Shown here: piece by piece, positions 15,209 to 46,127 of the stretch
Layout of the letters: the number at the start of each line of letters is the position of its first letter
Numbering within the stretch: position 1 is the first letter of the stretch
NCBI GenBank assembly: GCA_965227095.1
Contig: CBDDFL010000001.1
Span: forward strand, 85,539-149,538
Length of the DNA stretch: 64,000 nt
Source: Alphaproteobacteria bacterium
GTDB taxonomy: Bacteria; Pseudomonadota; Alphaproteobacteria; JANQMY01
Direction of reading: 5' to 3'
Position numbers and translations under genes: made by a program
The notes under the pieces: generated by a model
What the model was told of the DNA's origin: nothing
Seen by the model: the letters and a program-made list of their open reading frames with translations, nothing else
Databases searched by the model: none

Positions 15209-15460
15209 ATGACACGTAAACCGCTAGCTAAGGTCCTGGTGCTGGGAATTGATTCCGGCGAGCCGAGCATGGTCACCCGCTATGCTGCCGAAGGATTGCT
15301 GCCCAATATTCAACGCTTGCAGAACCGCTCCGTTTGGGGGCGCGTTGCAAATCCAAAAGGGTTCGAATCCAGCGCTGTTTGGCCCACCTTTCAAACGGCA
15401 AAACGGCCCGGCAATATGGGGCAGTATGAGGGCTTGCGGTATTTCGATCCGCAAACGTAC
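15209..15460 (+). pseudogene. Alkaline-phosphatase/nucleotide-pyrophosphatase-family paralog, 5' part (interrupted by IS)
   Basis: MTRKPLAKVLVLGIDSGEPSMV...YEGLRYFDPQT aligns with residues 1-84 of the intact paralog at 18531. The reading frame runs into the IS inverted repeat. Confidence 0.8.
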
Positions 15461-17137
15461 CAGACCGTGTGAAAACGGCGGCTTGGGATTCCTGTTGCGG
15501 CGTTTGTGGAGTATGCTGAGGCATGAGATACATGACCGGAACACCACGTTCGCAAGCGTTGCTTTTGCCGGAGCGCGTTGAAGACTACGTTGGCCCAAAC
15601 AATCCAGTGCGGTTTATCGATGCCTTTGTTGACGGGCTTGACCTCGCTGCAGCTGGGTTCGCGCGGGCGATGCCCAAGTCGACCGGCCGACCAGGTTACG
15701 ATCCGGCTGACCTGCTCAAACTCTACATCTACGGTTACTTAAACCGGGTGCGTTCAAGCCGCCGTCTGCAGGCCGAAGCGCACCGCAATCTTGAGGTGAT
15801 CTGGCTGATGCGGCATCTAAAGCCGGATTTCAAAACAATAGCCGATTTCCGGAAGGATAATCGATCAGCATTTCGGAACGTCTTCCGGCAGTTTGTTCGG
15901 CTGTGCCGAGACCTTGATCTTTTCGGGCGCGAGCTGCTGGCTGTGGACGGGACACGGATCAAGGCGGTGAACAACGGTGGCAAGAATTTCACCAAAGCTT
16001 CGCTCAAGCGCGATTTGGCTCTGATCGACAAGCGATTGGAACATTATCTCACCTCCCTCAACAATGCAGATGCAGAGGATGACGGTAACGCTGATATCGC
16101 GTCGAAGGAGGATATTTCCAAGAAAATCGAAGCTATGAAGGCGCGGCGCGAACGGCTGATCGGCCATCAAAAAGAACTGGAGGAGACCGGCGCGGACCAA
16201 CTGTCTCTGACCGACCCTGACGCCCGCGCCATGGATCGCAACACGCGCGTTGGCGTTGGCTATAACATCCAGATCGCCGTGGATGTGAAGCACAAGTTGA
16301 TCGCTGAGCAACAAGTTCATTCCAAGGTAAGCGACCTTGGGCTGCTCGCAACGACCGCGGTTGCGGCACGCGAGGCGCTGGATGTTGAGCGCATCAATGT
16401 GGTCGCGGACAAGGGGTATTTCGCGATCGAGGATATCGAGGCCAGCGAAGCAGGGAGCGCCTTTCCAATCGTCCCAAGGCCGCGGCGTGGGGCTGCCGCG
16501 AGTAGAAATTTGTTTGTCAAAGAGCGATTTCAATACGACGCGACGGCAGACCGCTACACCTGCCCCGGCGGTCAGACCCTCCCCCCGAATGGGAAAAAGC
16601 TTTACGTCCGAGATGGTGTTTTCGAGCAGAAATATCGCAACTACCGCGCCTGCAAGCAGTGCCAGCTCAAGCCGCGATGTACCGGAAGTGAGGCTCGAAC
16701 TGTTTCGCGATATGAAAACGAAGAGGTTTTAGAACGTATGGCTGAGCGCCTTGCCGCCCGCCCCGAAGCGCTCGATCAGCGCCGCGAGACCGTCGAGCAC
16801 CCCTTCGGATCCATCAAGCAATGGATGGGTCAAGGCGCGTTTTTGACACGCCGTCTGGATAACGTCCGTGGCGAGTTCAGCCTAACGGCGCTCGCCTACA
16901 ACATCCGCCGGGCGATCACATTGGTCGGAGTGCCGACCCTAATCCAAGCAGCACGGGTGTAGGCAACCAACCTGCGACTGTTTCGGCGCCAGAAAATGCG
17001 CGGCTGGCCCTGTCACGCCCTCAATAGCCTCTGCTGGCCGACGTTAGGCCACTCAAAGCCCATTTCCACACGATATATCCAAAGACCGATCGTTCTCCGT
17101 ATTCGCGGCCAGAAGGCCGCCGTTTTCACACGGTCTG
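15461..17137 (+). mobile_element. Intact IS1182-like (IS5-family) insertion sequence, 1677 bp
   Basis: 22-bp perfect terminal IRs CAGACCGTGTGAAAACGGCGGC (15461-15482 and rc 17116-17137), flanked by GTAC on both sides (4-bp TSD). Single transposase ORF. Confidence 0.85.
15523..16962 (+). CDS. IS1182-group (IS5-family) DDE transposase
   Basis: N-terminal ...PNNPVRFIDAFVDGLDL...GRPGYDPADLLKLYIYGYLNRVRSSRRLQ and C-terminal Cys cluster CPGGQTL...CKQCQLKPRC typical of IS1182-group transposases. Confidence 0.85.
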   Translation: MRYMTGTPRSQALLLPERVEDYVGPNNPVRFIDAFVDGLDLAAAGFARAMPKSTGRPGYDPADLLKLYIYGYLNRVRSSRRLQAEAHRNLEVIWLMRHLKPDFKTIADFRKDNRSAFRNVFRQFVRLCRDLDLFGRELLAVDGTRIKAVNNGGKNFTKASLKRDLALIDKRLEHYLTSLNNADAEDDGNADIASKEDISKKIEAMKARRERLIGHQKELEETGADQLSLTDPDARAMDRNTRVGVGYNIQIAVDVKHKLIAEQQVHSKVSDLGLLATTAVAAREALDVERINVVADKGYFAIEDIEASEAGSAFPIVPRPRRGAAASRNLFVKERFQYDATADRYTCPGGQTLPPNGKKLYVRDGVFEQKYRNYRACKQCQLKPRCTGSEARTVSRYENEEVLERMAERLAARPEALDQRRETVEHPFGSIKQWMGQGAFLTRRLDNVRGEFSLTALAYNIRRAITLVGVPTLIQAARV

Positions 17138-18461
17138 GTACGATTTCGACCACTTCACCGAAGATCAAGTGCCGGAAGACTATCTATGGCAGCGTTTGTC
17201 GCGTGCCGGTAAGCGTTGCTTCGTATTCGATGCGCCTTATGCGCTGCTTGACCGATCCATCAACGGTACGATGATTGTAGATTGGGGTCCTCATTTGCCC
17301 GCCAAAGGCTATGGCCAGGCTGATTTTCAAACGCAACCGCCCGAAGTGGCGGAAGAAGTGCTCGCGGTTGGCGGTCCCGACCCGTTCTGCGGTGAAATGT
17401 GTGATGACCTGTCTATCGCGTCAGCCGCGGACTATCGGGAGTTCGTCGATCAGCATATTGACCGCATACAGAGAAAAGCAAAGATCGCGAGTTACTTTCT
17501 GAAAAAGGGTGATTGGGATTACTTTCAGACTGTCTTCCCCGATATGCATTGTGTGGGACATCACGTGTGGCATATCAGCGATGAGAACCACCCTGACCAC
17601 GATCCGGACTTCGCGAAAAAGACCGGAGATTTGTACAAAGATGCGTTCATCGCCATTGACCAGGCCATCGGTGATATCATGGCCAATGTGGATGACCGGT
17701 CGCTCACCCTGCTCTATTTCAGTCATGGCATGCGCCAACAACGCACGGGCACGGGAGTGTTGGATCGGGCGCTGGCCTTGATTGACGGTCAGACCCTTGA
17801 TCTTGGCGGCGCGACCACTAAAACCCGCCTTAAGAAATTATGGCAAAAGACACCCGCTGAGTTTCGGTCTTTAGTGGCGCCCTTGAGACGCAAATTCCGC
17901 GGTGCTCTGGAAGTTTCCACCCTGCTTGAGAACCGGGACGACCGGCGTTTTTTCGAAGTGCATAACAATCGGCGCACGGGGGGTGTTCGCCTCAATCTGA
18001 TCGGCCGGGAAGCCAACGGAAAAGTAGCCCCGGAAGAATTCGACATGGTGCTGGATGAGATTATTGCGGAACTCTCCAAAATAACCAATGTGGAGTCCGG
18101 AACGCCGTTGGTGGAGGAATTTATCAAAACCCGCGACGTGCATGACGGCCATTGCATTGATCGGTTGCCGGACCTGCTGGTGCGCTGGAATCAGCACCAT
18201 CCGATCCGCGCGGTGACGTCGCCCACAATTGGCAGGATTGATCAGAACTTCGAAAACACGCGTAGCGGGGATCATTCCTCTTACGGACTATTCGCGGCGC
18301 AAGGCGGCGGCATTGAACGCACGCCCCTCAACCATGATGTGAATGCGGAAGACTTCGGCCTTACATTGATGGAAATATTGGGCGTGTCGCCTGAAGACAC
18401 TGATGGCGATGCCATCGAACAATTGCTGGTATTCGACCAGAAACTCGAATTGGCCAGTTGA
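17138..18461 (+). pseudogene. Alkaline-phosphatase-family paralog, 3' part (resumes after IS)
   Basis: In-frame YDFDHFTEDQVPEDYLWQRLSRAGKRCFVFDAPY... aligns with the intact paralog from residue 85 onward; GDHSSYGLFAAQG near the C-terminus. Confidence 0.8.
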
Positions 18462-21072: not shown

Positions 21073-21810
21073 CTACACGGACACTTTTTGATCGGCGCCC
21101 GTCTCTTTGGGGAGGGGCGCCATCTTCGTTTCAAGCGCCGAAATCTGGTCCCGAAACCGTCGCGCCGTGTCGTCATCGGCATAGGCCAGAAGATTGCACA
21201 GCCCCGTATGTTCGACGCGGGTCACAAAGTCCGCATCGCTCAACGCCCCCCGCGCCCACAAAATGGCCGTGCCGAACCAGCCCACCGTCAATTGAGAAGC
21301 GAGAATGTGCGGGTCGAAGCGCGCCGCCAGCGCCCCTTGTTCCAAGGCGCGGATCAAGGCGGTTTCCGCAAGTCCGGCGCCAAATTCCATGAACTCCAAA
21401 GGGCGGCTGGGGGAGCCCAAGGGGCGGTCCTTGTCGCCCGCCCACATGGGATGAAAGAGCGCCTTGCGCGCAATGCATTTTTCCGCCGCCACCGTCATGA
21501 TGGTCAGCACCTGCTCGATGGGGTCTTGATCTTCGGGGAGCGCCGTCAGTTCTTCTTCCAGGGTCGAAAAGGCGCGGTCTTCCAGCACGGCGGCGATGGC
21601 TTCCTTGCCGCCGCCATAGAGGTTGTAAAGCGTCTTGACGCTCAGCCCCACTTCCTGGGCCAGCGCCCGCATGGTGAAAGCGCTCAAGGAATCGCGCATG
21701 ATCAACCGCTCCGCCGAATCCAAGATTCGCTGGCGCCTGGCCTCCATATTGAGTGCGCGTTGATCCATCCCGACCACGGTCGATCCCATTGAGTCCCCGA
21801 TCTTTGGCAT
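21073..21810 (-). CDS. TetR-family transcriptional regulator
   Basis: HTH RQRILDSAERLIMRDSLSAFTMRALAQEVGLSVKTLYNLYG; divergent from the CYP153 gene. The true start is probably an internal Met (MDQRAL or MEARRQ). Confidence 0.8.
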   Translation of the reverse strand: MPKIGDSMGSTVVGMDQRALNMEARRQRILDSAERLIMRDSLSAFTMRALAQEVGLSVKTLYNLYGGGKEAIAAVLEDRAFSTLEEELTALPEDQDPIEQVLTIMTVAAEKCIARKALFHPMWAGDKDRPLGSPSRPLEFMEFGAGLAETALIRALEQGALAARFDPHILASQLTVGWFGTAILWARGALSDADFVTRVEHTGLCNLLAYADDDTARRFRDQISALETKMAPLPKETGADQKVSV

Positions 21811-21854
21811 CTAGCAAGTTGGCGCCGCAATCCGCAAGTGCCATTCACATTTTG

Positions 21855-21899
21855 CTTGACTACAACGCCGTTGTAACTTACAACATTGTTGTAGTCAAG
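21855..21899. promoter_or_regulatory. Nested perfect palindrome, likely TetR operator in tetR/CYP153 divergent promoter
   Basis: Outer IR CTTGACTACAAC (21855-21866) / GTTGTAGTCAAG (21888-21899); inner IR GTTGTAA-C-TTACAAC (21870-21884). Confidence 0.6.
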
Positions 21900-21917
21900 A
21901 TTTTCCCGGAGATCTCC

Positions 21918-23192
21918 ATGAGTCAGGCCGCCCTGAAACCGTCCACAACAGACACTTTCGACCCAAACGCGATCGCGCTGGAGGACATCGATCTGACGGA
22001 CGCGAATTACTATTTCAACCAACAGCATTGGGCCCTGTTCGAACGCCTGCGCAATGAAGATCCGGTGCATTTCTATGACCATGAAGAATTTGGCCGCATC
22101 TGGTCGGTGACCCGCTATGCGGACATCATGGCGGTGGACACCAACCACAAAACGTTCTCCTCCGAACCGTCCATCTTTATCGTCGATGGGCCCACGGGCG
22201 ACGATGAAAACTTCGACCCGGAAACCTTCATCGCCATGGACCCGCCAAAACACGACATTCAGCGCAAAGCGGTGACCCCGGCCGTTTCGCCCTCTGCGTT
22301 GATGGATTTGGAACCCCTGATCCGCGAGCGTGTGTGCAAGGTGCTCGACGGCTTGCCGGTGGGCGAAACCTTCAACTGGGTGGACCGGGTGTCGATCGAA
22401 ATCACCACCCAAATGTTGGCCACCCTGTTCGATTTCCCCTTCGAAGACCGCTACAAGCTGACCTTCTGGTCAGACCTCACAACCGCCAACGAAGAAGTGT
22501 TGGAAGAAATGGGGCTCACGGAAGAAGAACGCCGCGGACACCTGTATGAATGCTTGGAAACTTTCGGCAAGCTTTACGCCGAACGCGCGGCTCTTCCGCC
22601 TGCGAATGATTTCATCTCGCTGATGGCTCATAACGAGCATATGAAAAGCCTGGACCCCATGAACTTGCTCGGCAATCTGATGCTGCTGATCGTGGGCGGC
22701 AACGACACCACGCGGAATTCCATGTCCGGCGGCGTGCTGGCCCTGCATAACCATCCGGACCAATTCGCGAAGCTGAAGGCCGACCCGTCGGTCATCCCGA
22801 ACATGGTGTCGGAAATCATTCGTTGGCAGACGCCGCTGGCCTATATGCGCCGCACTGCCACGGAAGATGTGGAACTGGGCGGCAAGACCATCAAAAAAGG
22901 CGACCGGGTATTGATGTGGTACATCTCCGGCAACCGCGACGAGCGGGACATTGACCGCCCCAATGAATTCCTGATCGACCGGGAAGGCGCCCGCCGCCAC
23001 CTATCCTTTGGCTTCGGCATTCACCGCTGCATGGGCAACCGTGTGGGCGAAATGCAGGTGCGCATTCTGTGGGAAGAAATTCTCAACCGCTTCGACCGGG
23101 TGGAAGTGGTGGGCACGCCCGTGCGCACTTTCTCGAACTTCGTGATGGGCTTCACCGACCTACCTGTCGTCGTGCACCCGAAGACGAGCTAG
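21918..23192 (+). CDS. Cytochrome P450, CYP153 family (alkane/alkyl omega-hydroxylase-like)
   Basis: CYP153 signatures LLIVGGNDTTRNSMSGG, EIIRWQTPLAYMRRTA, heme loop FGFGIHRCMGNRVGE. Confidence 0.9.
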   Translation: MSQAALKPSTTDTFDPNAIALEDIDLTDANYYFNQQHWALFERLRNEDPVHFYDHEEFGRIWSVTRYADIMAVDTNHKTFSSEPSIFIVDGPTGDDENFDPETFIAMDPPKHDIQRKAVTPAVSPSALMDLEPLIRERVCKVLDGLPVGETFNWVDRVSIEITTQMLATLFDFPFEDRYKLTFWSDLTTANEEVLEEMGLTEEERRGHLYECLETFGKLYAERAALPPANDFISLMAHNEHMKSLDPMNLLGNLMLLIVGGNDTTRNSMSGGVLALHNHPDQFAKLKADPSVIPNMVSEIIRWQTPLAYMRRTATEDVELGGKTIKKGDRVLMWYISGNRDERDIDRPNEFLIDREGARRHLSFGFGIHRCMGNRVGEMQVRILWEEILNRFDRVEVVGTPVRTFSNFVMGFTDLPVVVHPKTS

Positions 23193-23204
23193 GCGATCAG
23201 CCTT

Positions 23205-23232
23205 GACGGACGGGGTTTGCAACCCCGTTTAC
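23205..23232. repeat. REP-like palindrome (degenerate copy) immediately after CYP153 stop
   Basis: gacggacggggtttgcaaccccgtttac (compare consensus TTGACGGACGGGGTTACAAACCCCGTCCGTCAA). Confidence 0.5.
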
Positions 23233-23238
23233 CTCTGT

Positions 23239-23637
23239 TTATTTCTCACCAGGTTCACCTTGCGCGGTGGAGAGGAGTCTGACCAACAGTCCAAGCAAGG
23301 TCAAAGAGATTAGACCGTAGAGGCCGACGATTGACCAGCCATTTTCATTCGCCCCGGCATACTGTCCCTGGATCGCCATGACCGTGCTCAAAGACGTTGC
23401 GATCAGAAGGGATGACACAAACCCCATACGCAGGTTTCTATCCTCAGTTCGACGGGCGAACCATGCGCACATGCCCATGCCGATGAGTGTCGAGCCCCAG
23501 AACCGATAGATGACGATCCCCATGGCGCTCAATTGAACATCGTAATTTGCCAACATATCTTCGGGGAACAGAACACATAGAGCGCCAGAGACAATGGTTA
23601 CTACGGCCAAAATTGAAAGTACCAATTTATACGTCAC
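23239..23637 (-). CDS. hypothetical small membrane protein (4 predicted TM)
   Basis: 132-aa hydrophobic ORF; no family recognised. Confidence 0.5.
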   Translation of the reverse strand: MTYKLVLSILAVVTIVSGALCVLFPEDMLANYDVQLSAMGIVIYRFWGSTLIGMGMCAWFARRTEDRNLRMGFVSSLLIATSLSTVMAIQGQYAGANENGWSIVGLYGLISLTLLGLLVRLLSTAQGEPGEK

Positions 23638-23676
23638 GGCCTTTTCCTTTTTTTTAGGGTCTAATGATGTCGAGTG

Positions 23677-24984
23677 TTAGGCTGACAAGCTCAGCCCCAC
23701 TTGCTTTTTGACCTGGGCCAAAGCAGCGCGATAGGTGTCGATATGCACATAATTTGCATGTCGTTGAGAGTCGACATAACGGTGGCCAGCCGTGAGGTCG
23801 GGCTTATGCGTCTTTTTCATTTTTGAAAGCTTTTCTTTCAAGGGCGATTCGGCATTGGCCGCGGCATCTGCCGCGATTAACTCAGCCATCTGATCAAAAT
23901 TTGCGTATGCCGCCGAGGAGAATTCCACAAACCCAAGAAACGCCAAATTGCTGTGCTTTCTGGAAAACATTCCCAAATAAAGATCGGGCCGCCCCTTCTT
24001 TTTGTCTACGTCGGCTGGGTCCAGGAACGGGATGTCGTGTTTGTATCCGGTCGCCGCTATGATGAGATCCACCTGCTCTCTAGACCCGTCAACAAATTCA
24101 ACACAATGGCCATCCAATCTCGCAATGTCCGGTTTAACGACACAATCGCCGTGCCCCACATAGTGCAGAATCTGGGTGTTCATCAACGGATGAGATTGAA
24201 ACAGTTTGTGGTCCGGCTTCGGAAATCCGTATCTCGCAACATTGCCATTCATCAAGTTCAGGATCAACGTGATTGCCGGCGTGGAAATCCAGTCCGGAAG
24301 CTTGGCCCCTTTCCTCGCAAACACATCCGTCGGCTGTCCCATGATGTATTTCGGCACAAAATGATAACCCCTTCGTACGCTGATGAATGTCTGCTTCGCT
24401 GCAAATGCCGCATCACACGCAATGTCTGCGCCGGAATTCCCAGCGCCAACGATCAGCACACGTTTTCCAGCAAACTCCGACGGCGATCGATATGTGATTG
24501 AATGTCGAATTTCTCCGTCAAAATTTCCGGGCCATGAAACTAAGTTAGGTTCCCAAGTCACTCCATTGGCGCAGATCAAATAACGGGCGGTAAGGGTTTC
24601 ACCCTCTTTCGTTTCTAACTTCCATTTCCCCTGACGGTCACGCTTGGCATGGGTAATATGGGTGTTCAGTCTTACGTGTTTGCGTAAATCAAACGTGTCG
24701 GCGAACGACCGGATATAGTCGAGAACAAGTGTGTGATTTGGGTAGTCGGGGTAACCATCGGGCATTGGAAATCCGGGAATTCCCGACAATGACCGAGACG
24801 AAATAAAGTGGGCGGAGTCGTACATCGGCGATCCAGGTGCATCAATGTCCCAAACACCTCCTACGTCAGACCCACGATCAATTAACTGAAACCTTGTGTC
24901 ATATGACTGGAGGTGTTTTGCCAGAATCAATCCGGCAGGGCCCGCACCAACAACCAAAACATCCCATTCTTTCGTCTCATTCAT
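23677..24984 (-). CDS. Flavin-containing monooxygenase (FMO-like, two dinucleotide-binding motifs)
   Basis: VLVVGAGPAGL (FAD) and LIVGAGNSGADIA (NADPH) GxGxxG motifs, FMO-like FxGxxxHS region. Confidence 0.85.
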   Translation of the reverse strand: MNETKEWDVLVVGAGPAGLILAKHLQSYDTRFQLIDRGSDVGGVWDIDAPGSPMYDSAHFISSRSLSGIPGFPMPDGYPDYPNHTLVLDYIRSFADTFDLRKHVRLNTHITHAKRDRQGKWKLETKEGETLTARYLICANGVTWEPNLVSWPGNFDGEIRHSITYRSPSEFAGKRVLIVGAGNSGADIACDAAFAAKQTFISVRRGYHFVPKYIMGQPTDVFARKGAKLPDWISTPAITLILNLMNGNVARYGFPKPDHKLFQSHPLMNTQILHYVGHGDCVVKPDIARLDGHCVEFVDGSREQVDLIIAATGYKHDIPFLDPADVDKKKGRPDLYLGMFSRKHSNLAFLGFVEFSSAAYANFDQMAELIAADAAANAESPLKEKLSKMKKTHKPDLTAGHRYVDSQRHANYVHIDTYRAALAQVKKQVGLSLSA

Positions 24985-25004
24985 TCAAATACCCCCCCTC
25001 TTTC

Positions 25005-25048
25005 GTGACTAGTAGTCACGTTACAAAATACGACTATTAGTCACGTTT
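25005..25048. promoter_or_regulatory. Candidate operator in FMO promoter: palindrome GTGACTAGTAGTCAC plus direct repeat of CTAnTAGTCACGTT
   Basis: gtgactagtagtcac at 25005-25019; ctagtagtcacgtt (25008-25021) and ctattagtcacgtt (25034-25047), 20-60 bp upstream of the FMO start. Confidence 0.45.
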
Positions 25049-25230
25049 TGAGTTTTGTCAAGCGGAACTCCGCATCGGAAACACGCAGACGACAGAAAAG
25101 TTTCGCTGCTCTTTCACCGGATGAGGGAGCCGACCGTTCTCCAAAAGGAAAGTTGGGGTGTTCAAATTAAAGCACGCGGTCGAAACAATGTGCCGCGAGA
25201 ATGTCGGTTGCGCCGTGCTAAGCAGCATTA

Positions 25231-25309
25231 CTCAGCACTCAGCACTCAGCACTCAGCACTCAGCACTCAGCACTCAGCACTCAGCACTCAGCACTCAGCA
25301 CTCAGCACT
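25231..25309. repeat. Heptanucleotide microsatellite (CTCAGCA)x11.3, perfect
   Basis: Direct reading of ctcagca repeated 11 times plus ct, ending at the tetR stop codon (25309-25311); lies in the 324-bp FMO upstream region. Confidence 0.95.
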
Positions 25310-25932
25310 TAAGATACCGATCGATTTTCCAAAATATGCAAGCAGGTTAATCCACAGAAGGCATCAATCGTTCTTTTTGCCTCCGCTGGAGACAGGACTG
25401 CTACGAGACGAATTGCGGCATCTGCCAATTCCAGCATCAACAAGACGCGCTCCGCAATCGATTTGCGGGACCCGTGAACACCTCGGCTCGCCAAAAACCC
25501 AGCGACGATTTTTGCGTTCTTTCGACTGTCTTCCAAATCCAGACGCGAGAGCTCCGGATCTTCACGAATAACGGCTCTCAACTGCACACGAAACGGTTCT
25601 CTTTGATGCCGTTCAAGATATTCCCGAAAGCCAATGCGCAATATTTCCTCCGGCGATATATCCGGCCCAATCGTTGCGTGGATCAGATCAGCCCCATCCT
25701 TATAGACCCGTTTGATAAGCGCATGGACGATTGCCGGTTTTCCCGGGAAATACCGATAGACTGCCGCTTTCGATATCCCGGCCCGTTTCGCGATTTCGGT
25801 AATCGTGATCTTGTCGATACTATTGGACGACAACAACTCCTCCAGCGCCCCCAGAATCGATTCAACACCGGTCTTGCTTCGGGTTTGCTCGGGTTCACGT
25901 CTGAGCTCTAAGTCTGTGTTAGACATTCTCAT
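25309..25932 (-). CDS. TetR-family transcriptional regulator
   Basis: HTH ITITEIAKRAGISKAAVYRYFPGKPAIV; 207 aa. Confidence 0.85.
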   Translation of the reverse strand: MRMSNTDLELRREPEQTRSKTGVESILGALEELLSSNSIDKITITEIAKRAGISKAAVYRYFPGKPAIVHALIKRVYKDGADLIHATIGPDISPEEILRIGFREYLERHQREPFRVQLRAVIREDPELSRLDLEDSRKNAKIVAGFLASRGVHGSRKSIAERVLLMLELADAAIRLVAVLSPAEAKRTIDAFCGLTCLHILENRSVS

Positions 25933-26091
25933 TCAATTCCTTATGTCGGTCGCGCCGGAGAAGCTGACATCGTGTTTTGTAATCCTACCCTCGAGAAGCT
26001 CGACATGCACCGTCGCTGATGGAACCGAATAGGAAATGCCACACGAACAGAGCAACAAGGCCATAACGACGCTGGCAATGAGTCTTGGCAT
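25933..26091 (-). CDS. possible small lipoprotein (52 aa), not in supplied ORF track
   Basis: Manual translation MPRLIASVVMALLLCSCGISYSVPSATVHVELLEGRITKHDVSFSGATDIRN; signal-peptide-like with Cys; stop abuts the tetR start codon. Confidence 0.25.
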   Translation of the reverse strand: MPRLIASVVMALLLCSCGISYSVPSATVHVELLEGRITKHDVSFSGATDIRN

Positions 26092-26133
26092 TTTCTAACC
26101 CCCAATTCGGAAAATGGGTCTAGTTTCTCTATT

Positions 26134-26956: not shown

Positions 26957-27030
26957 GGTTACGTCCAGATTTGTGCAGCGGTTGTGACGATCTCATAGTA
27001 TGACACAACCAATTGACATACACCTCCCTA

Positions 27031-27064
27031 TTGACGGTCGGGGTTACAAACCCCGTCCATCAAC
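27031..27064. repeat. REP element copy 3
   Basis: ttgacggtcggggttacaaaccccgtccatcaa. Confidence 0.8.
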
Positions 27065-27077
27065 TGGGAACCAATCC

Positions 27078-27620
27078 TTAGCTTCTACCGTCGGGATCAC
27101 TTTCGCCGCCATCCTTCCAATTCTGTTGAAGGTCTGTCCACAGTTTGGACTGCTGATCAGGCGAGTCGAGACGGGATTGAAGATAAGTTCGCGGGCTGGG
27201 GGGAACGATATGGGTGTTTTCTGTTTGGGTCCACCATTCCGGAATTGACCGAATGGTAACAAGAAGAGATTGCATGATCACTTCAAACGATTCCTCATCC
27301 AACAGGCCCTTTTCGTACAATTGCAACGCGTCATGCGCATTTCCCAAATAGCGCCACATGAACATGTCGAACGACGAGCTGTCCTGCTGGTCCATTGTTG
27401 CGTATCCATTTACCGCCGCCAGCATGATGCGACGCAATTCGGCGTTTTTCGCAACATCCCAAGAGTTGCCGTGAAAATTGCCCATAACGGACCGTGCGCT
27501 TTCGATGCGATAGTTGCGATTTGACTGGCGGATCTGAATCGCGAGGTAAATGAGCGATAAGATGACGCCCACTGCCGCCAAAAAATCTGAAATCGCGCTA
27601 ATGGCTGACCAGTTCATCAT
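27078..27620 (-). CDS. hypothetical membrane-anchored protein (paralog of 27843-28364)
   Basis: N-terminal TM ...VGVILSLIYLAIQIRQSNRNYRIESARSV resembles ...AAILGSLIFVGVQIRQNTLATRRQSLDGV of the neighbour. Confidence 0.55.
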   Translation of the reverse strand: MMNWSAISAISDFLAAVGVILSLIYLAIQIRQSNRNYRIESARSVMGNFHGNSWDVAKNAELRRIMLAAVNGYATMDQQDSSSFDMFMWRYLGNAHDALQLYEKGLLDEESFEVIMQSLLVTIRSIPEWWTQTENTHIVPPSPRTYLQSRLDSPDQQSKLWTDLQQNWKDGGESDPDGRS

Positions 27621-27683
27621 CTTTCCTCTCGTTCACATCAGGGATTTTTAGTTGATTTTCCAAAGGATGTCTTCTCTACATTC

Positions 27684-27729
27684 TCTCGACGGACGGGGGG
27701 ACGGGGTTACAAACTCCGTCCGTCAACGG
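27684..27729. repeat. REP element copy 4
   Basis: ctctcgacggacggggggacggggttacaaactccgtccgtcaacgg. Confidence 0.8.
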
Positions 27730-27842
27730 AAACTGTGATGCAACCAATGTCACTTCTCTCATCGGCCTGACAATGACATTCTTTGATCAGACAGATAATG
27801 TCGCTCGTCTGCAAAACACCTCTTTTATGCGGGGAGAAGGTC

Positions 27843-28364
27843 ATGTCGCTCGAGACCATTTACTATATCGGCCAAACGATTGCCGTTGCGGCGATTCTAG
27901 GTTCGCTCATATTTGTTGGCGTTCAAATTCGCCAGAATACGCTTGCGACCAGAAGACAATCTCTAGACGGCGTGATTGACCGAATTGTTCGGTGGCAGTC
28001 AAGGCTAACCAGCACGCCGACTCATGTGGATAGCTGGGTCAAAGGGCTGCAGAACTTTGACAGTCTTCCCGTTGAAGAAAAAATCCATTTCAATGCCCTC
28101 ATCATAGAAATTCTGGTAACTCTCGAGGCGGGACGAGAGGCCGGTAAGACGGGCGATATTAAGCCTGAAACCATTGAGGCGATGGACGGCATGATCGTCC
28201 AACTCTTCCGAAACGCCGGCGTAAGGGAATATTGGCGCCAAGCAAATTACGCGGCGGATTTTATGGCCTACGTCGATAAAATTACAGAGAAGGTGACAGC
28301 GATCCCCAATAGTGACCCCGGGTCCTTGCCGTTTTATGTACCGCCGGAAGAGGCAACTCAATGA
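27843..28364 (+). CDS. hypothetical membrane-anchored protein (paralog of 27078-27620)
   Basis: GGAGAAGG SD before the ATG at 27843; the same N-terminal TM-IQIRQ architecture as the divergent neighbour. Confidence 0.55.
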   Translation: MSLETIYYIGQTIAVAAILGSLIFVGVQIRQNTLATRRQSLDGVIDRIVRWQSRLTSTPTHVDSWVKGLQNFDSLPVEEKIHFNALIIEILVTLEAGREAGKTGDIKPETIEAMDGMIVQLFRNAGVREYWRQANYAADFMAYVDKITEKVTAIPNSDPGSLPFYVPPEEATQ

Positions 28365-28519
28365 AATGCGATGCAGTCTGGTCTGCTCCCTTCGACATTG
28401 CCTTTGGACTGTGATGACCGGATCAAGTATTGCAGCGTTTGGTTTTTTTGAAAGAGATCTAAGGTTATCCGGCCGTTTATGAACATCATAACAACGTCCA
28501 CGTCATAAAAATTCTTCAC

Positions 28520-28557
28520 TCTCGACAGACGGGTTTTGTAACCCCGTCCGCAGGTTC
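28520..28557. repeat. REP element copy 5 (inverted relative to copy 6; flanks RAYT start)
   Basis: ctctcgacagacgggttttgtaaccccgtccgcaggttc. Confidence 0.8.
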
Positions 28558-28559
28558 AT

Positions 28560-29111
28560 ATGATCCGCCTATTAGATCGGAGAACGTGGCCTATGCCAAT
28601 CGTGCGTATCAAACCGTTTGCAAAAGATGGTGTCTATTTCGTGACGCCGACGGTTTGGAATTGGTACTACCTGTTCGATCGGCACAATCGGTGGCAGATC
28701 ATCGCGGACAGTCTGCGGTATTGCCAAGATCACAAATCTCTCAAGATCTACGCTTACGTCTTCATGCTGAACCATCTGCATTTGATCATTCAGGCGGACG
28801 ATGCCGAAAACGTTTTGCGGGATTTTAAGCGGCACACCTCAAAAGCGCTCAAAGAGAATATTCGCGCAACGGAACCAAATGTCCTGACATTATTCGAAAC
28901 CACTGATAGCACCTGGCGTCTTTGGAAAGCAGATAACCAACCACAGCTGATTGAAACGGAAAAGTTCTTTCGCCAGAAGCTCGATTACATTCACGCCAAC
29001 CCCGTACGCAAAGACGACGGGTCACAAGCCGAACACTGGAAATGGTCATCCGCTAATCCGGATAGCCCTCTAAAAATTGAACCGTTATCCTTATTGACGG
29101 GACAGCAATGA
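28560..29111 (+). CDS. REP-associated tyrosine transposase (RAYT, IS200/IS605-like Y1 HUH)
   Basis: HUH motif MLNHLHLIIQ and catalytic Tyr region LDYIHANPVRK; 183 aa; flanked by inverted REPs. Confidence 0.85.
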   Translation: MIRLLDRRTWPMPIVRIKPFAKDGVYFVTPTVWNWYYLFDRHNRWQIIADSLRYCQDHKSLKIYAYVFMLNHLHLIIQADDAENVLRDFKRHTSKALKENIRATEPNVLTLFETTDSTWRLWKADNQPQLIETEKFFRQKLDYIHANPVRKDDGSQAEHWKWSSANPDSPLKIEPLSLLTGQQ

Positions 29112-29149
29112 ACCTGCGGACGGGGTTACAAACCCCGTCCGTCAATGGC
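29111..29149. repeat. REP element copy 6 (flanks RAYT stop)
   Basis: gaacctgcggacggggttacaaaccccgtccgtcaatggc; the outer arm gaacctgcgg is the inverse of ccgcaggttc at copy 5. Confidence 0.8.
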
Positions 29150-29187
29150 ATAGGCAGCGTTGTCAACGAGAGGCGGCAGCACGTTTA
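29150..29187 (-). pseudogene. 12-codon remnant of a second PhyH-like gene start fused to REP copy 6
   Basis: The rc reads GTG-LPPLVDNAAYA..., compared with the intact PhyH N-terminus MLPPVVDNAADA; about 80% nt identity over about 100 bp to 26921-27030, including upstream sequence. Confidence 0.45.
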
Positions 29188-29418
29188 CGTCCGTATTTGT
29201 TTGGGCGGCTGAAGACGCTTCTCAGTATGGCATAGACATGATGCGTGCTTATCCCGCTCTCTACGCGGGAATAGGCAACATTAGCGAACGAATCACTAAC
29301 CTGGCAGCCTAATTAAGTATAGCAGGTGCCAATTTGGTGGGAAACCAAATGGATCGCACTTGCCCTCCATCGGTGCTTTGTTATTCTGGGACAATCTTAA
29401 CGATAATGGAGGAAGCTC

Positions 29419-29847
29419 GTGTCTACACCGACAGACGGTAGTTTTGACGCCCTAAATCTAGACGCTGTCTTAAACACAGCTGTTGATCAAGCCTCTGGAA
29501 TAATCAGCAGTGTCAAAAATCCTTCGTGGGATAAACTATCGCCGGTAAAGCAGTTCCCCGGCAAAATTTCGAAAAATGTCATCCCAATAGATTTTGAAGA
29601 ATATCGGATGCAGATTGTCACAAAAGTTGAACCCGGCACTCTTGTCGACACACATAAGCATGTGGAATCCGTATTCCGATATGTCCTGGATGGCGACCTT
29701 ACAATAAATGGTCTGGCACACGGACCAGGTGATTGGGTACTTGTCCCTGGAAACACCCCATATCGAGTAACAACAAACGGCGGATACACAGTTCTAGCTT
29801 CTTACGGAGCCAAATGCGGATCCCCACATGACCGCGTCGTTAAGTAA
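29419..29847 (+). CDS. cupin-domain protein
   Basis: ThkHvesvFryVLdGdLti...GpGdwvlvPgn pattern of small cupins; located in a low-GC islet. Confidence 0.55.
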   Translation: MSTPTDGSFDALNLDAVLNTAVDQASGIISSVKNPSWDKLSPVKQFPGKISKNVIPIDFEEYRMQIVTKVEPGTLVDTHKHVESVFRYVLDGDLTINGLAHGPGDWVLVPGNTPYRVTTNGGYTVLASYGAKCGSPHDRVVK

Positions 29848-29926
29848 GACATTGAAACATCAGCACAGAACCTTTGCGGACGAGATATCAAACTGTCGAT
29901 AGATAATCTATGTGGGGTTTCGCTGA

Positions 29927-30616: not shown

Positions 30617-30647
30617 CGACCTCCACGTTATCACAGCAAACTGGCCC

Positions 30648-37807: not shown

Positions 37808-37878
37808 GAACCCTGTATTTCCGCTTTCACATAAACCCCCATTCATAATCGTTTTCGAAGGGACAAACCAGCGTTCGT

Positions 37879-41318: not shown

Positions 41319-42644
41319 CTAGGCTTTGCGGTGGCAGACCACGGGCAGCCACGCATATCCGTGTACGAATGAATTCGGCACCAAATTCGGCTCGTCCAAC
41401 ACCTCGATATGCTCAAACCGCTTGAGCAATTCTTCCCACAACACACGCAATTGAAGCTCCGCAAGGCGGTTGCCCACGCATCTATGAATGCCAAATCCAA
41501 ATGAGACGTGGTTACGCGCTTGTTTGCGGTCAATGATTAGGCGGTTTGGATCTTCTTCCCAGAACGTTTCATCGCGATTGGCGGATATGTACCACATGGC
41601 GATTTGATCGCCTTTCTTGATGGTTTTGCCATGCATCTCTACGTCTTCCAGCGCGGTCCGCCGCATATAGGACAGCGGTGTCTGCCAGCGGATAATTTCC
41701 GCAACCATATTGGGGATGAGCGCGGGGTTTGCTTTTAACTTGGCATATTCATCCGGGAATTTGTTGAGCGCATAGACACCGCCCGACATGCTGTTGCGGG
41801 TCGTATCGTTCCCCCCAACAATCAGCAGCAACACGTTCCCCAGCAACCAATTCATATCGAGATTGCGTGTGGACGCACCATGGGCCAACAGGCTCATCAA
41901 GTCATGACCAGCAGGGGCCGACTTACGTTCTTCATAGATACCGGAGAACGTTGTGAGGCAGTCAGACAATTCCTGCTGCCATTGGTCCCGGCCCCCAGGA
42001 CACACGTCTTTATCGAATGGATTGGTGGTCACATCTGACCAGCGGGTGAGTTGGCGCCGTCTTTCCTGAGGAAACCCGAACAAGGTCGCCAGCATCATGG
42101 CCGTCAATTCGATAGAGACAGTATCGACCCAATCGAAGGGCTCCCCCACCGGCAACCGATCCAATACTTTTTGCGTCCGACCACGGATAAGGGGTTCATA
42201 TTCCTGCAGCATGTTCGGGGCAACGCCGGGCTGAACAGTTTTGCGCTGAACCGAATGAATGGGTTCATCCGCCGTTATAAAACTGTTGGCGTCAAAGCCC
42301 TTGGCTGGCGGGCCCAACACGATGCCGCCATATTTAGCGTCTGATGAAAAACGCGTGTGATCCGTATCTATCGCCAGCACGTCCTTATAGCGGGTGACCG
42401 ACCAATAGGGACCAGAAATGCTATCAGGCGTCCAATGCAACGGATCTTCTTTGCGCAGACGGTCGAACCGATCCCACATTTTGTTCTGCCGCCAGACTTC
42501 CACGTCAATGAGATCGAGCGTTTCCAGATCCAATTCGCTCGCCGGAGGGACGCGATCCCCTTGATCTAAATATTGAGGCCGAGCGGGCTTGCGGTAACTG
42601 AGAGTTGGACGTTCCAACGTCAGGCTGCGGGCGGCTTCCCCCAT
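41319..42644 (-). CDS. Cytochrome P450, CYP153 family (second copy)
   Basis: LLIVGGNDTTRNSMSGG, EIIRWQTPLSYMRRTA, FGFGIHRCVGNRLAE; paralogous to 21918-23192. Confidence 0.9.
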   Translation of the reverse strand: MGEAARSLTLERPTLSYRKPARPQYLDQGDRVPPASELDLETLDLIDVEVWRQNKMWDRFDRLRKEDPLHWTPDSISGPYWSVTRYKDVLAIDTDHTRFSSDAKYGGIVLGPPAKGFDANSFITADEPIHSVQRKTVQPGVAPNMLQEYEPLIRGRTQKVLDRLPVGEPFDWVDTVSIELTAMMLATLFGFPQERRRQLTRWSDVTTNPFDKDVCPGGRDQWQQELSDCLTTFSGIYEERKSAPAGHDLMSLLAHGASTRNLDMNWLLGNVLLLIVGGNDTTRNSMSGGVYALNKFPDEYAKLKANPALIPNMVAEIIRWQTPLSYMRRTALEDVEMHGKTIKKGDQIAMWYISANRDETFWEEDPNRLIIDRKQARNHVSFGFGIHRCVGNRLAELQLRVLWEELLKRFEHIEVLDEPNLVPNSFVHGYAWLPVVCHRKA

Positions 42645-42671
42645 GGGATTTGTTCCTCATGATCACGACTG

Positions 42672-42707
42672 TTGACACTGTCTACTCAAATCTGTAGACA
42701 GTGTCAA
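42672..42707. promoter_or_regulatory. Perfect 14-bp inverted repeat, likely TetR operator in CYP153/tetR divergent promoter
   Basis: TTGACACTGTCTAC-tcaaatct-GTAGACAGTGTCAA, ending 1 bp before the tetR ATG. Confidence 0.6.
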
Positions 42708-42708
42708 C

Positions 42709-43335
42709 ATGGAAGCAGCATTGCTAGAGTCACCCACCCCCCCGCGCAGTGACGGTTTGCGCGCAAGACTCATATCTGTGGCCCTGAAGATCCTAAAAGA
42801 CCAAGGGATTGAAGCCCTTACGCTGCGGGCTGTGGCACGCGGGGCCTGTGTCTCGCATGGCGCGCCCGCGCGGCATTTCAGGAATTTGGATGATCTGAAG
42901 GCCGAAGTGGCGGCGGAAGGCCTGCGTATCGTTTCCGGCGACGTATCGGATGCCATGGCTCAAGTCCCCCCCGGCAGCCCCCCCAAAACGCTGCTCATGG
43001 CGGCCTCACGCGCATATGTAAATTGCGCCCTTGAGAACCCGGGCCTTTTTTCGCTTATCATTCGGACGGGCACGCTGCCCGCATCGAACGACGCGCTGCG
43101 CGTCGAATCCCAATCAACTTACGAACGCTTCCATCGCATGGTTTTAAAGCTTCAGGAAAGAGGGTGGAAAAAAGGGATGGACCCCAAACTGCTTGCGGGG
43201 TCTCTTTGGTCGTCCGTGCATGGGCTGTCTACGCTTTGGATGCACGGGACATACCAACAAGCCCATCCTGATGCCACGCTTGACGATGCGATAGAAAACA
43301 TCTTGGACCTTAATTCACATCCGCGATCCGATTGA
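42709..43335 (+). CDS. TetR-family transcriptional regulator
   Basis: HTH LTLRAVARGACVSHGAPARHF; divergent from CYP153. Confidence 0.85.
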   Translation: MEAALLESPTPPRSDGLRARLISVALKILKDQGIEALTLRAVARGACVSHGAPARHFRNLDDLKAEVAAEGLRIVSGDVSDAMAQVPPGSPPKTLLMAASRAYVNCALENPGLFSLIIRTGTLPASNDALRVESQSTYERFHRMVLKLQERGWKKGMDPKLLAGSLWSSVHGLSTLWMHGTYQQAHPDATLDDAIENILDLNSHPRSD

Positions 43336-43346
43336 AGAAACGCACC

Positions 43347-44966
43347 ATGACCACAGACAGCACACACCATCAATTCATTATCATCGGCGCAGGGGTTTCA
43401 GGCATTTATCAAATCAAGCGTCTCAGTGACATGGGGCTCGATGCAATTGTACTGGAGGGCGACGAAGATTTGGGAGGCACGTGGTATCGCAACAGATATC
43501 CAGGCGCCCGTTTCGATTCCGAAAGCTACACTTATGGCTATTCATTTTCGCAGGAACTTTTGGATGAATGGCACTGGACAGAACGCTTTTCGTCCCAACC
43601 GGAAAATCTGAAATACCTGAACTTCGTCGCTGACAAATTCAACCTGCGCCAATACATGAAGTTTAACGCCCGCGTTGAGTCCATGATCTGGGACGACACC
43701 GCAAATCAATGGCAGCTAACCTTACAGAATGGTGAAACATACACGGCCCAATTTGTAATCACCGGTATTGGCGTCTTGTCGATGCCGACGATGCCCCGCA
43801 TCAAGGGAATTGACGATTTCAAAGGTGAATCCTTCCACACCTATTGGTGGCCCAAAGAACCTGTATCGTTTGCCGGCAAACGGGTTGGCGTGATCGGAAC
43901 AGGGGCGACCGGCATTCAGGTCATCGCGGAGATCGCCGACAAAGTCGGTACACTGACCGTCTTCCAGCGCCGCCCAAATTGGAGCACACCTTTAAACAAC
44001 GCGCCGATCTCTGAAAGTGAGATGGCGGAGATCCGGTCTCGCTATGACGAGATTTTCGCGAATTGCGCCATGTCACCCGGCGGTTTCGAACATGTGCCGG
44101 ACCGGCGTGGCTTTTGGAACGTGAGCAAGGAAGAACGTATTGCCACGTGGGATCGCCTTTATGACACGCCAGGTTTTGCCCTTCTGGCGGGAAATTTTCG
44201 CGAAATCTTCATGGATGAGGCTGCGAACAAAGAGATCTCTGACTACGTGGCCGATCGCATTCGTCAGCGCGTAAACGACCCGAAGGTCGCCGAAAAACTT
44301 ATCCCGAAGGATCACGGATTTGGCGTGCAACGGCTGCCGTTAGAAAGCCGATATTTTGAGGCGTACAATCGCGACAATGTTGAGCTGGTGGACATTACAG
44401 ACTCACCGATCGAGAGGATTACGGAAACAGGCATTCAAACAACCAACGCACACCATGACCTCGATATGATCATTTATGCCACGGGCTTTGACGCGGTGAC
44501 CGGCGCCTTCGACCGTCTGACTGTCAAAGGTGTCGGAGGCGTGGATCTTCGTGACAAATGGAAAGACGGGCCGAAGACCTATCTCGGCCTTCTCGTTCAT
44601 GGATTTCCAAACATGTTCATGGTCGCAGGGCCACAAAGTGCTTCAGGGTCTACAAATTACCCGCGTGCGATCGAAAACGGGGTTAACTGGGTCACCGATC
44701 TGATCGAACACTTGGTCGCGAACGACATAAACAGGTTCGAGGCGACGGCTTCAGCGGAAGAAAGCTGGCAAGAAGCCGTCCAGGACGCCTACGCGGCATT
44801 GCTTCTGCGTAAAAGCCAAGGATGGTTCACGGGATATAACTCGAACATCGCCGGGCGCGAAGTTGGAAAAATCCGTTACCAAGCCTATTTCGGCACAGGC
44901 CCCAAATACACGTCGATCATCAAACAAGTGGCAGAGGACGGGTACCGCACACTTAAGTTCGGTTGA
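43347..44966 (+). CDS. Baeyer-Villiger monooxygenase (type I BVMO)
   Basis: FIIIGAGVSGI (FAD), BVMO fingerprint FKGESFHTYWWP, second Rossmann VGVIGTGATGIQ. Confidence 0.85.
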   Translation: MTTDSTHHQFIIIGAGVSGIYQIKRLSDMGLDAIVLEGDEDLGGTWYRNRYPGARFDSESYTYGYSFSQELLDEWHWTERFSSQPENLKYLNFVADKFNLRQYMKFNARVESMIWDDTANQWQLTLQNGETYTAQFVITGIGVLSMPTMPRIKGIDDFKGESFHTYWWPKEPVSFAGKRVGVIGTGATGIQVIAEIADKVGTLTVFQRRPNWSTPLNNAPISESEMAEIRSRYDEIFANCAMSPGGFEHVPDRRGFWNVSKEERIATWDRLYDTPGFALLAGNFREIFMDEAANKEISDYVADRIRQRVNDPKVAEKLIPKDHGFGVQRLPLESRYFEAYNRDNVELVDITDSPIERITETGIQTTNAHHDLDMIIYATGFDAVTGAFDRLTVKGVGGVDLRDKWKDGPKTYLGLLVHGFPNMFMVAGPQSASGSTNYPRAIENGVNWVTDLIEHLVANDINRFEATASAEESWQEAVQDAYAALLLRKSQGWFTGYNSNIAGREVGKIRYQAYFGTGPKYTSIIKQVAEDGYRTLKFG

Positions 44967-46100: not shown

Positions 46101-46127
46101 CTTTCCCTCCCGGACTTCTTGTGGCCC

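Follow-up and report, generated by a model that had tools for sequence, protein, structure and literature searches.

CYP153 enzymes are class I, ferredoxin-dependent P450s, and the textbook arrangement of their genes is the araC-fdx-cyp153-fdr operon. In Novosphingobium aromaticivorans, a single unlinked pair, ArR/Arx, serves several class I P450s that have no partner genes beside them. In Mycobacterium tuberculosis, the TetR-family repressor EthR controls the BVMO EthA via an operator in the short intergenic region common to the two genes; ethA is divergent from ethR and encodes a different type of BVMO from the one described below. In Acidovorax sp. CHX100, a P450 and then a cyclohexanone monooxygenase act on one substrate, and their cluster includes ferredoxin, reductase, dehydrogenase and lactonase genes. 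The camR gene is divergently oriented, and the palindromic operator recognised by CamR overlaps the two promoters. The CYP153 gene AS9A_2813 of Amycolicicoccus subflavus is reportedly grouped with ferredoxin and reductase genes. CamR, a TetR-family regulator, controls the P450cam genes of Pseudomonas putida and responds to the pathway substrate (bioRxiv 10.1101/2021.08.20.457167); the P450 of the cycloalkane pathway in Acidovorax sp. CHX100 is of class I (PMC7056670); and AS9A_2813 has been described as controlled by a TetR-like regulator, not AraC, in an 'operon-like structure' (PMC3743902).

We analysed a 64-kb stretch of alphaproteobacterial DNA (the window) that holds three units of TetR gene, operator and oxygenase: TetR-1/P450-1, P450-2/TetR-2/BVMO and TetR-3/FMO (Table 1). 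The region is plastic, with a Tn7-like module, an IS insertion and two strain-variable slots. In our best reading, the P450 genes belong to two cassettes: (i) TetR-1, Op1 and P450-1; and (ii) P450-2, Op2, TetR-2 and a type I BVMO. We consider it likely that these are independent, self-contained CYP153A cassettes that use a ferredoxin and reductase encoded elsewhere. No single pathway cluster unites these oxygenase genes, and the layout is normal for these marine Alphaproteobacteria.

Table 1. Features of the window discussed in the text.
Feature	Position	Strand	Description
Esterase	13941-15005
TetR-1	21073..21810	-	TetR-family repressor gene, divergent from P450-1; longest ORF 245 aa
Op1	21855..21899	.	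Presumed TetR-1 operator, within the TetR-1/P450-1 gap
P450-1	21918..23192	+	CYP153A-type cytochrome P450, 424 aa
FMO cassette	23239..25932	-	Strain-specific; outside both P450 units
132-aa ORF	23239-23637		In FMO cassette
Class B FMO	23677-24984		Pfam FMO-like; motif FDGEIRHSITY present
Op3	25004-25045		Operator of FMO cassette (putative); 14-nt arms, 93% complementary
TetR-3	25309-25932		TetR_N (46.2 bits, cut-off 24) and TetR_C_22
Thioesterase	37879-38673
P450-2	41319..42644	-	CYP153A-type cytochrome P450, 441 aa
Op2	42670..42709	.	Presumed TetR-2 operator: perfect 16-nt arms TGTTGACACTGTCTAC, 8-nt spacer
TetR-2	42709..43335	+	TetR-family repressor gene, 208 aa, divergent from P450-2; Pfam TetR_N and TetR_C_33
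Type I BVMO	43347..44966	+	539 aa from ATG 43347; ORF opens at TTG 43332
FAD_binding_3 hydroxylase	46652-48445		Aromatic-ring hydroxylase in MarR operon
GltD	49234-50676		Glutamate synthase small subunit, adjoins gltB

The closest solved structures of P450-1 and P450-2 are CYP153 enzymes (6hqg and 3rwl, CYP153A7; E values of 1e-157 and 1e-143). Over approximately 405 residues, P450-1 is 59% and P450-2 56% identical to CYP153A7 (3rwl), and the two are 55% identical to each other. Family membership is defined by at least 40% amino acid identity to a named member, a level that both exceed, and a common subfamily by more than 55%. A P450 catalytic core is recognised by a Cys-ligand loop FxxGxHxCxG, an ExxR motif and, in CYP153-type enzymes, an I-helix acid-alcohol pair in LLIVGGNDTTRN. 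Both proteins carry the I-helix LLIVGGNDTTRN and EIIR, together with the heme loops FGFGIHRCMG (P450-1) and FGFGIHRCVG (P450-2), and CYP153A7 contains the same signature strings. The start of P450-1 at its table ATG fits the length of its orthologues (422-425 aa) and a GGAG ribosome-binding site 6 nt upstream. P450-1 is 100% identical to a metagenome protein (P0001, 462 aa) for which a longer N-terminus was called. Exact-sequence look-ups of both P450s returned no match, because public gene calls for P450-1 start upstream, as in P0001.

Both genes are under purifying selection. Against orthologues that are 80-87% identical, dN/dS was 0.06-0.08 for P450-1 and 0.06 for P450-2, figures that are rough because dS is close to saturation. 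These values bear on the idea that the P450 genes are what is left, silent or in decay, of operons gained by horizontal transfer and stripped of their ferredoxin, reductase and AraC genes. The plasticity of the region (Tn7-like module, IS insertion, two strain-variable slots) would suit such a history, but the ORFs are intact, all catalytic motifs are kept, dN/dS is low, and several genomes have kept the partnerless layout with its operators. We regard decay as extremely improbable.

TetR-1, TetR-2 and TetR-3 all pass the Pfam TetR_N cut-off of 24 bits. TetR-1 scores 29.9 bits; metagenome gene callers start it at 21699, which gives a protein of 208 aa. Its orthologues (85% identity) occupy the same divergent position at four other loci (L005-L007 and L089), and at a fifth, L088, the gene divergent from the P450-1 orthologue is also a TetR_N gene (24.1 bits). 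The TetR-1/P450-1 pair recurs with different neighbours at all five loci, and TetR-1 has a dN/dS of 0.06 against L005. Op1 consists of two perfect tandem sites, TACAAC-N3-GTTGTA (21861-21875 and 21879-21893), inside a larger 45-bp inverted repeat whose outer ends read TTGAC and whose 22-nt arms are 86% complementary, hence not strictly perfect. The arms do not vary across L005, L088 and L089, unlike the N3 centres and the flanks. Exact copies of the motif in the window are confined to Op1.

The second cassette is built around Op2, whose arms are 100% complementary and which covers most of the 64 bp that separate the two start codons. A small palindrome, GACA-N-TGTC, lies within each arm. The arms are nearly invariant across three metagenome-assembled genomes (L008-L010), with one change, in L010, and the spacer is variable; exact copies of this motif in the window are likewise confined to Op2. 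TetR-2 scores 27.7 bits for TetR_N. Its PDB matches are distant, the best being uncharacterised regulators. The BVMO begins 11 nt past the TetR-2 stop codon and is presumably co-transcribed with TetR-2. It gives full-length matches to OTEMO (3uov, 507 bits), PAMO, STMO and CHMO. Type I BVMOs are defined by FxGxxxHxxxW[P/D] and [A/G]GxWxxxx[F/Y]P[G/M]xxxD, flanked by two Rossmann motifs; here we found FKGESFHTYWWP at residue 158, GGTWYRNRYPGARFD at 43 and GxGxxG at 14 and 184. Beyond the TetR-1/P450-1 pair, the P450-2/TetR-2/BVMO trio is the only grouping that recurs elsewhere, in the same three genomes, with orthologues of P450-2 (80-83% identity), TetR-2 (60-67%, same position) and the BVMO (74-80%), and with completely different flanks each time. 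One of these genomes carries both modules, on separate contigs (L089 and L010).

These observations uphold much of what an earlier note on this DNA had claimed for the two genes. Both P450s are CYP153 enzymes, as the identity to CYP153A7 and the intact signature motifs indicate, and each faces a divergent TetR gene. Its claim of perfect palindromic operators holds outright for Op2; in Op1, perfection is limited to the two sub-sites.

The three palindromes, Op1, Op2 and Op3, are putative operators found in the intergenic regions between regulator and target. We propose that, in each cassette, a TetR-family repressor would bind a bipartite palindromic operator between divergent genes. In the absence of its ligand, the repressor would silence the oxygenase gene or genes as well as its own gene, and a hydrophobic substrate or product would release it. 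The outer operator ends, TTGAC(A/T), resemble what may be the -35 boxes of two face-to-face promoters. A strict sigma-70 consensus scan of both intergenic gaps found no promoter, and -10-like hexamers were poor; the promoter and leaderless layout is therefore proposed solely from the perfect TTGACA/TTGACT boxes and their spacing. The TetR-2 ATG abuts the operator, so its transcript may be leaderless.

P450-2 and the BVMO have one operator in common and are therefore probably co-regulated, that is, probably switched on together. Whether they also act on one carbon skeleton, by hydroxylation, conversion to a ketone by an unlinked dehydrogenase and Baeyer-Villiger insertion, is somewhat doubtful, albeit a real possibility. 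Two points count against such a pathway: (i) the cassette has no dehydrogenase to bridge P450-2 and the BVMO; and (ii) CYP153 enzymes typically yield primary alcohols from n-alkanes, and such alcohols do not feed a BVMO.

Neither P450 gene is adjoined by a ferredoxin, reductase or AraC gene, as a canonical araC-fdx-cyp153-fdr locus would have. Pfam scans of selected large ORFs across the window revealed no ferredoxin or reductase, and neither did precomputed Pfam calls for metagenome contigs colinear with it. HTH_18/AraC was absent from the scanned window ORFs and from the precomputed Pfam calls for two of the contigs (L001-L002). Six-frame window ORFs of at least 45 aa contained no genuine Fe-S cysteine motif; the cysteine-motif matches among them were dismissed as off-frame noise. 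Putidaredoxin and putidaredoxin-reductase probes found no match in the 64-kb window by phmmer. The probes were validated on positive controls, the reductase probe on 1q1r: at canonical control loci, the putidaredoxin probe matched L090-L093 and the reductase probe L091 and L093. The reductase probe also recovered 3lxd, the ArR structure. Pyr_redox_2 proteins in the window are limited to GltD and the class B monooxygenases. We rejected both GltD and the FAD_binding_3 hydroxylase as candidate reductases, given their assignments in Table 1.

The same holds among relatives. Ferredoxin or reductase genes were found near none of 80 genome loci carrying P450-2 relatives, in fetched DNA reaching up to 10 kb per side (at least 5 kb on both sides at 54 of the 80). 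More distant homologues have a ferredoxin alone or neither partner, and in one marine alphaproteobacterium (L096) a stand-alone reductase-ferredoxin gene pair sits amid housekeeping genes. The earlier note was right that no partner gene lies nearby, and the redox partners have to come from genes beyond the 64 kb; the 80 loci do not support its implied view that the arrangement is unusual. We propose that P450-1 and P450-2 are class I enzymes that would be fed by a [2Fe-2S] ferredoxin and an FAD-containing ferredoxin reductase encoded elsewhere, a pair that is probably common to other P450s of the genome.

The missing partner genes, within 64 kb and near all 80 relatives, could also mean that these P450s do without ferredoxin and reductase and use peroxide, or electrons from the BVMO, the FMO or another flavoenzyme. 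At several Hyphomonas loci, a nitroreductase-family flavoprotein gene lies directly 3' of the orthologous P450 and would fit this explanation. However, the acid-alcohol pair is intact within GGNDTTRN in both proteins, their identity to CYP153A7, a member of a ferredoxin-dependent class I family, is 56-59%, and neither (at 424 and 441 aa) has a fused reductase domain. P450-1 forms a conserved module without a flavoprotein, the FMO is strain-variable, and there are well-documented cases of bacterial class I P450s with unlinked partners, ArR/Arx among them. The nitroreductase-family gene was rejected as an alternative partner, being absent from the window and from L008-L010. We consider ferredoxin-free catalysis very unlikely, and retain class I enzymes with unlinked partners as the preferred reading.

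The earlier note had also listed a BVMO, an FMO, esterases and a thioesterase around the P450s, and these gene types are all present. It read them, with the P450s, as what looks like a single non-canonical regulon or island, possibly devoted to the sub-terminal oxidation of alkanes, ketones or esters. All of them fall within approximately 30 kb, P450-2 and the BVMO are served by a single operator, and sub-terminal oxidation of alkanes is known to pair a BVMO with an esterase (PMC6304351). Beyond the probable co-regulation of P450-2 and the BVMO, however, the evidence does not support the proposal. The three operator motifs differ, each limited to its own intergenic region, and TetR-1, TetR-2 and TetR-3 have no mutual BLASTP similarity. 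The FMO cassette is missing from four metagenome contigs (L001-L004), in which segment 23187-26131 is swapped for unrelated DNA despite flanks that match the window at 97-100% identity. Between the esterase and P450-1 lie two phosphodiesterase genes, an IS and a spermidine-synthase-like gene, and the thioesterase is grouped with a RuBisCO-like protein and malic enzyme. In relatives, the FMO, esterase and thioesterase travel with neither P450 module. Given this lack of conserved synteny, the one-regulon proposal is disfavoured, and we judge it improbable; sub-terminal alkane oxidation itself is speculation.

The two proposed compact, repressor-gated class I P450 cassettes are an ordinary finding that does not overturn current understanding, and their value lies mainly in annotation and enzyme mining. 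In marine Alphaproteobacteria, CYP153 genes typically stand alone, so the textbook operon serves poorly as a model there, and surveys of hydrocarbon degradation will miss these genes if they demand linked partners. Op1 and Op2 are short, well delimited and phylogenetically footprinted, and each has its own presumed repressor, which makes them ready candidates for biosensors of hydrocarbons or ketones. In the conserved CYP153/TetR/BVMO trio we see a compact, testable hypothesis of a two-oxygenase route. A broader scenario, which we hold to be rather unlikely as a whole, is that CYP153 genes in this uncultured alphaproteobacterial lineage circulate as minimal plug-in cassettes (repressor, operator and oxygenase or oxygenases) without electron-transfer genes, leaning on the recipient's single housekeeping-embedded reductase-ferredoxin pair. 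In that case, the P450-2/TetR-2/BVMO trio would move as one unit of two oxygenases, with a promoter pair inside a single 40-bp operator and a leaderless tetR-BVMO transcript, and would open cyclic or sub-terminal substrates, aided by a host dehydrogenase.

We found no similarity of the window TetRs to any characterised TetR. As in CamR/camDCAB, a TetR-family repressor gene is paired with a class I P450 unit; the cam operon, however, has its own reductase and ferredoxin (camA, camB) and dehydrogenase (camD) genes, which the window cassettes lack, and P450cam is a CYP101 rather than a CYP153. Amycolicicoccus subflavus is an actinobacterium, and the portion of its CYP153 description cited here links the gene to neither an operator nor a BVMO. 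Unlike ethA, the window BVMO gene runs in the same direction as the repressor gene, with the P450 in the divergent position. The P450s served by ArR/Arx belong to CYP families other than CYP153. In common with Acidovorax sp. CHX100, the second cassette combines a P450 with a type I BVMO, but the trio comes without ferredoxin, reductase, dehydrogenase or lactonase genes. The canonical CYP153 operon (araC and fdx-cyp153-fdr on the Acinetobacter plasmid locus L091; cyp153-fdr-fdx in Polaromonas JS666, L093) encodes P450s of the same family, with 54-57% whole-protein identity and the same catalytic signatures, and both sets presumably work as three-component class I systems. In contrast to that operon, each window cassette has a divergent TetR-family repressor and a palindromic operator, and one of the two copies is accompanied by a BVMO.

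On sequence grounds, we assigned P450-1 and P450-2, two genes 18 kb apart, to CYP153A. For both, the top solved-structure matches were the CYP153 enzymes 6hqg and 3rwl (CYP153A7; E 1e-157 to 1e-136), and the next families, CYP125 and CYP124, scored far below. P450-1 is 59% and P450-2 56% identical to CYP153A7, bearing out the earlier note's placement of both genes in CYP153, and the two share 55% identity with each other. LLIVGGNDTTRN, EIIR and the Cys loop FGFGIHRC(M/V)G occur in both proteins, and neither carries an extra domain (424 and 441 aa). Comparison with orthologues gave dN/dS values of 0.06-0.08, rough figures with dS near saturation, so both genes are under purifying selection.

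Features of the P450 modules and the adjoining TetR-3 unit
Feature	Position	Strand	Description
TetR-1	21073-21810	-	TetR-family gene, divergent from P450-1
Op1	21855-21899		presumed operator beside TetR-1
P450-1	21918 (ATG)-23192	+	CYP153-type gene
FMO	23677-24984	-	class B flavin monooxygenase gene of the TetR-3 unit, with a small ORF, also -
Op3	25004-25045		presumed operator of the TetR-3/FMO unit
TetR-3	25309-25932	-	third unit, directly after P450-1
P450-2	41319-42644	-	CYP153-type gene, faces TetR-2
Op2	42670-42709		presumed operator beside TetR-2
TetR-2	42709-43335	+	TetR-family gene facing P450-2
BVMO	43347 (likely ATG)		11 nt past TetR-2 stop; 539 aa, as in orthologues

Both P450s had been described as solitary, and searches of the window agree. 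Pfam analysis of selected large window ORFs, together with precomputed Pfam annotation of colinear metagenome contigs, returned neither a Fer2/Fer4 ferredoxin nor a Pyr_redox_2 plus Reductase_C reductase. Six-frame window ORFs of at least 45 aa held no credible Fe-S cysteine motif, and phmmer with putidaredoxin and putidaredoxin reductase gave no window match. The probes proved sound: the reductase probe gave a full-length match to 1q1r and hit further ferredoxin reductases at E < 1e-53, and the annotated genes of control loci L090-L093 were recovered with both probes. Each P450 lies > 20 kb from both window ends; hence, partners just beyond the ends would not share their operon.

This arrangement, which the earlier note described as non-canonical, is ordinary and lineage-typical in its group. 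A P450-2 scan of the genome collection identified 80 loci (66-83% identity), mainly from Henriciella and Hyphomonas and including three unclassified alphaproteobacterial MAGs, and no ferredoxin or reductase match turned up at any of the 80 in the sequence retrieved around them, which reached up to 10 kb per side (5 kb or more on each side in 54 loci, about 10 kb in 50). In Hyphomonadaceae loci, the CYP153 gene stands alone amid housekeeping genes (endonuclease III, ParA/ParB, GidB-like methyltransferase, PurE/PurK, and HisF), named by reading cluster representatives rather than by database scan; Pfam confirmed an SDR and a DUF2244 protein as neighbours. P450-1 relatives (L005-L007, L088, and L089) keep the divergent TetR and have no partner genes. 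Three more remote homologues have either ferredoxin-P450 and no reductase (two cases) or P450-MerR and neither partner (one case). Complete canonical operons are present on Acinetobacter and Polaromonas plasmids. A marine alphaproteobacterium (L096) carries a stand-alone reductase-ferredoxin pair amid housekeeping genes, which indicates, indirectly and from another organism, where unlinked partners can reside.

Two loci have expanded relatives of the P450-1 module: in L089 (7757-11269), the TetR-1 orthologue is followed by another 440-aa P450 on the TetR strand, and in L090 (6828-12737) three P450 genes stand in tandem, with a lone ferredoxin gene (106 aa, [2Fe-2S]) 3 kb away, upstream of the first. 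Beside P450-2 lies a convergent DUF1287 gene (40499-41275; 43-nt gap). DUF1287 is also downstream of CYP153 in about 15 Hyphomonas-type loci (L049, L053-L056, L059, L060, L062, L065, L070, L078, L080, L082, L084, and L085), where, in those inspected, it is on the P450 strand and preceded by a nitroreductase-family gene; it is missing from the closest loci with the P450-2/TetR-2/BVMO trio, L008-L010. This adjacency may reflect a functional link or coincidence.

TetR-1 and TetR-2 both pass the TetR_N cut-off, confirming that each P450 is paired with an adjacent, divergent TetR gene. The ORF after TetR-2 is a full-length match to type I Baeyer-Villiger monooxygenases (BVMO). Op1 is a 45-bp inverted repeat in the 107-bp TetR-1/P450-1 gap; its 22-nt arms show 86% complementarity, and it splits into two perfect TACAAC-N3-GTTGTA sites. 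Op2, whose 16-nt arms (TGTTGACACTGTCTAC) pair perfectly around an 8-nt spacer, fills most of the 64-bp P450-2/TetR-2 gap, ending at the A of the TetR-2 ATG. The perfect palindrome claimed for each P450 thus holds for Op2, but for Op1 only within its sub-sites. In orthologous loci (L005, L088, and L089 for Op1; L008-L010 for Op2), arm sequence changes little or not at all, whereas N3 centres, 8-nt spacer and flanking DNA diverge, a footprint that we read as good evidence for a protein-binding site at each. At their outer ends, both repeats carry TTGACA or TTGACT, which could act as -35 boxes of face-to-face divergent promoters, a layout that would make the TetR-2 mRNA leaderless. Because a strict promoter scan of both gaps was negative, this layout is one we only infer.

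The evidence argues against a single regulon uniting the two P450s, BVMO, FMO, esterases and thioesterase; the earlier note's observation is confirmed, and its interpretation partly supported. The motifs of Op1, Op2 and Op3 differ, each confined to its own gap in the window, and no similarity is detectable among TetR-1, TetR-2 and TetR-3. Four near-identical metagenome contigs (L001-L004) have an identical P450-1 and flanks 97-100% identical to the window, yet lack the FMO segment, so the FMO cassette is a strain-specific insertion. In these contigs, unrelated, shorter DNA replaces 23187-26131 and 26967-30647. The esterase (13941-15005) is parted from P450-1 by phosphodiesterases, an IS and a spermidine-synthase-like gene, and the thioesterase (37879-38673) from the P450s by a RuBisCO-like protein, malic enzyme and DUF1287; no such neighbours, FMO included, travel with either module in relatives. 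Trio flanks are wholly different across L008, L009 (MAG OZ245840.1), L010 and the window, and MAG IP29b_bin.177 has the two P450 modules on separate contigs (L089 and L010).

Directly downstream of P450-1 are two strain-variable slots. The breakpoint of the first, which contains the TetR-3/FMO cassette, falls 6 nt short of the P450-1 stop codon. The second is low in GC (0.48-0.50) and includes an IS200-like fragment (28560-29111), a cupin, and ORFs that match no family. The IS element at 15457-17141 (transposase 15523-16962, DUF772 and DDE_Tnp_1 domains; terminal inverted repeats of ~26 nt, GTACCAGACCGTGTGAAAACGGCGGC) splits a gene of the type I phosphodiesterase family; L001 and L003 have the intact gene. 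Near the left end (2455-5775) is a Tn7/Tn5053-like module of TniQ, TniB and a Mu-type transposase (rve and Mu-transpos_C). The RuBisCO large-subunit-like protein (36707-37846; 379 aa; RuBisCO_large, 82 bits), presumably form IV, is encoded next to the acyl-CoA thioesterase and malic enzyme. A minus-strand operon convergent with BVMO (45066-48445) comprises genes for an FAD aromatic-ring hydroxylase (597 aa), a MarR regulator and an Amidohydro_2 protein, the last of which weakly matches a Tat signal, and is not kept beside the trio in L008-L010. At the right end (62836-63986) are nitrile hydratase beta and alpha genes, the alpha ORF appearing to run past the end.

We suggest that the window contains two class I P450 cassettes, each gated by its own repressor, in which operator-bound repression would be relieved by ligand and electrons would come from an unlinked ferredoxin and reductase. 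P450, dehydrogenase and BVMO could then act in sequence. Coupling of P450-2 to BVMO is the only pathway hint backed by comparative data, and is weakened by the absence of a dehydrogenase from the cassette and the usual omega-regioselectivity of CYP153. The conserved three-gene module is one modestly interesting element of an ordinary finding.

By its sequence, the host is classed as an uncultured marine alphaproteobacterium. Its glutaminyl-tRNA synthetase matches ENA metagenome proteins at 100% and 97% identity and Rhodospirillales-like MAG proteins at ~74%, whereas the closest relatives of both P450s are Parvibaculaceae and Hyphomonadaceae proteins. The P450 modules are common to more than one order. 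The arrangement departs from the canonical CYP153 operon on all three counts: ferredoxin, reductase and AraC. Without partner genes, it would otherwise work like CamR/P450cam. TetR-linked CYP153 is already known from Amycolicicoccus subflavus (PMC3743902). Genomes with several CYP153 copies are known too; Parvibaculum lavamentivorans has five (PMC4021335).
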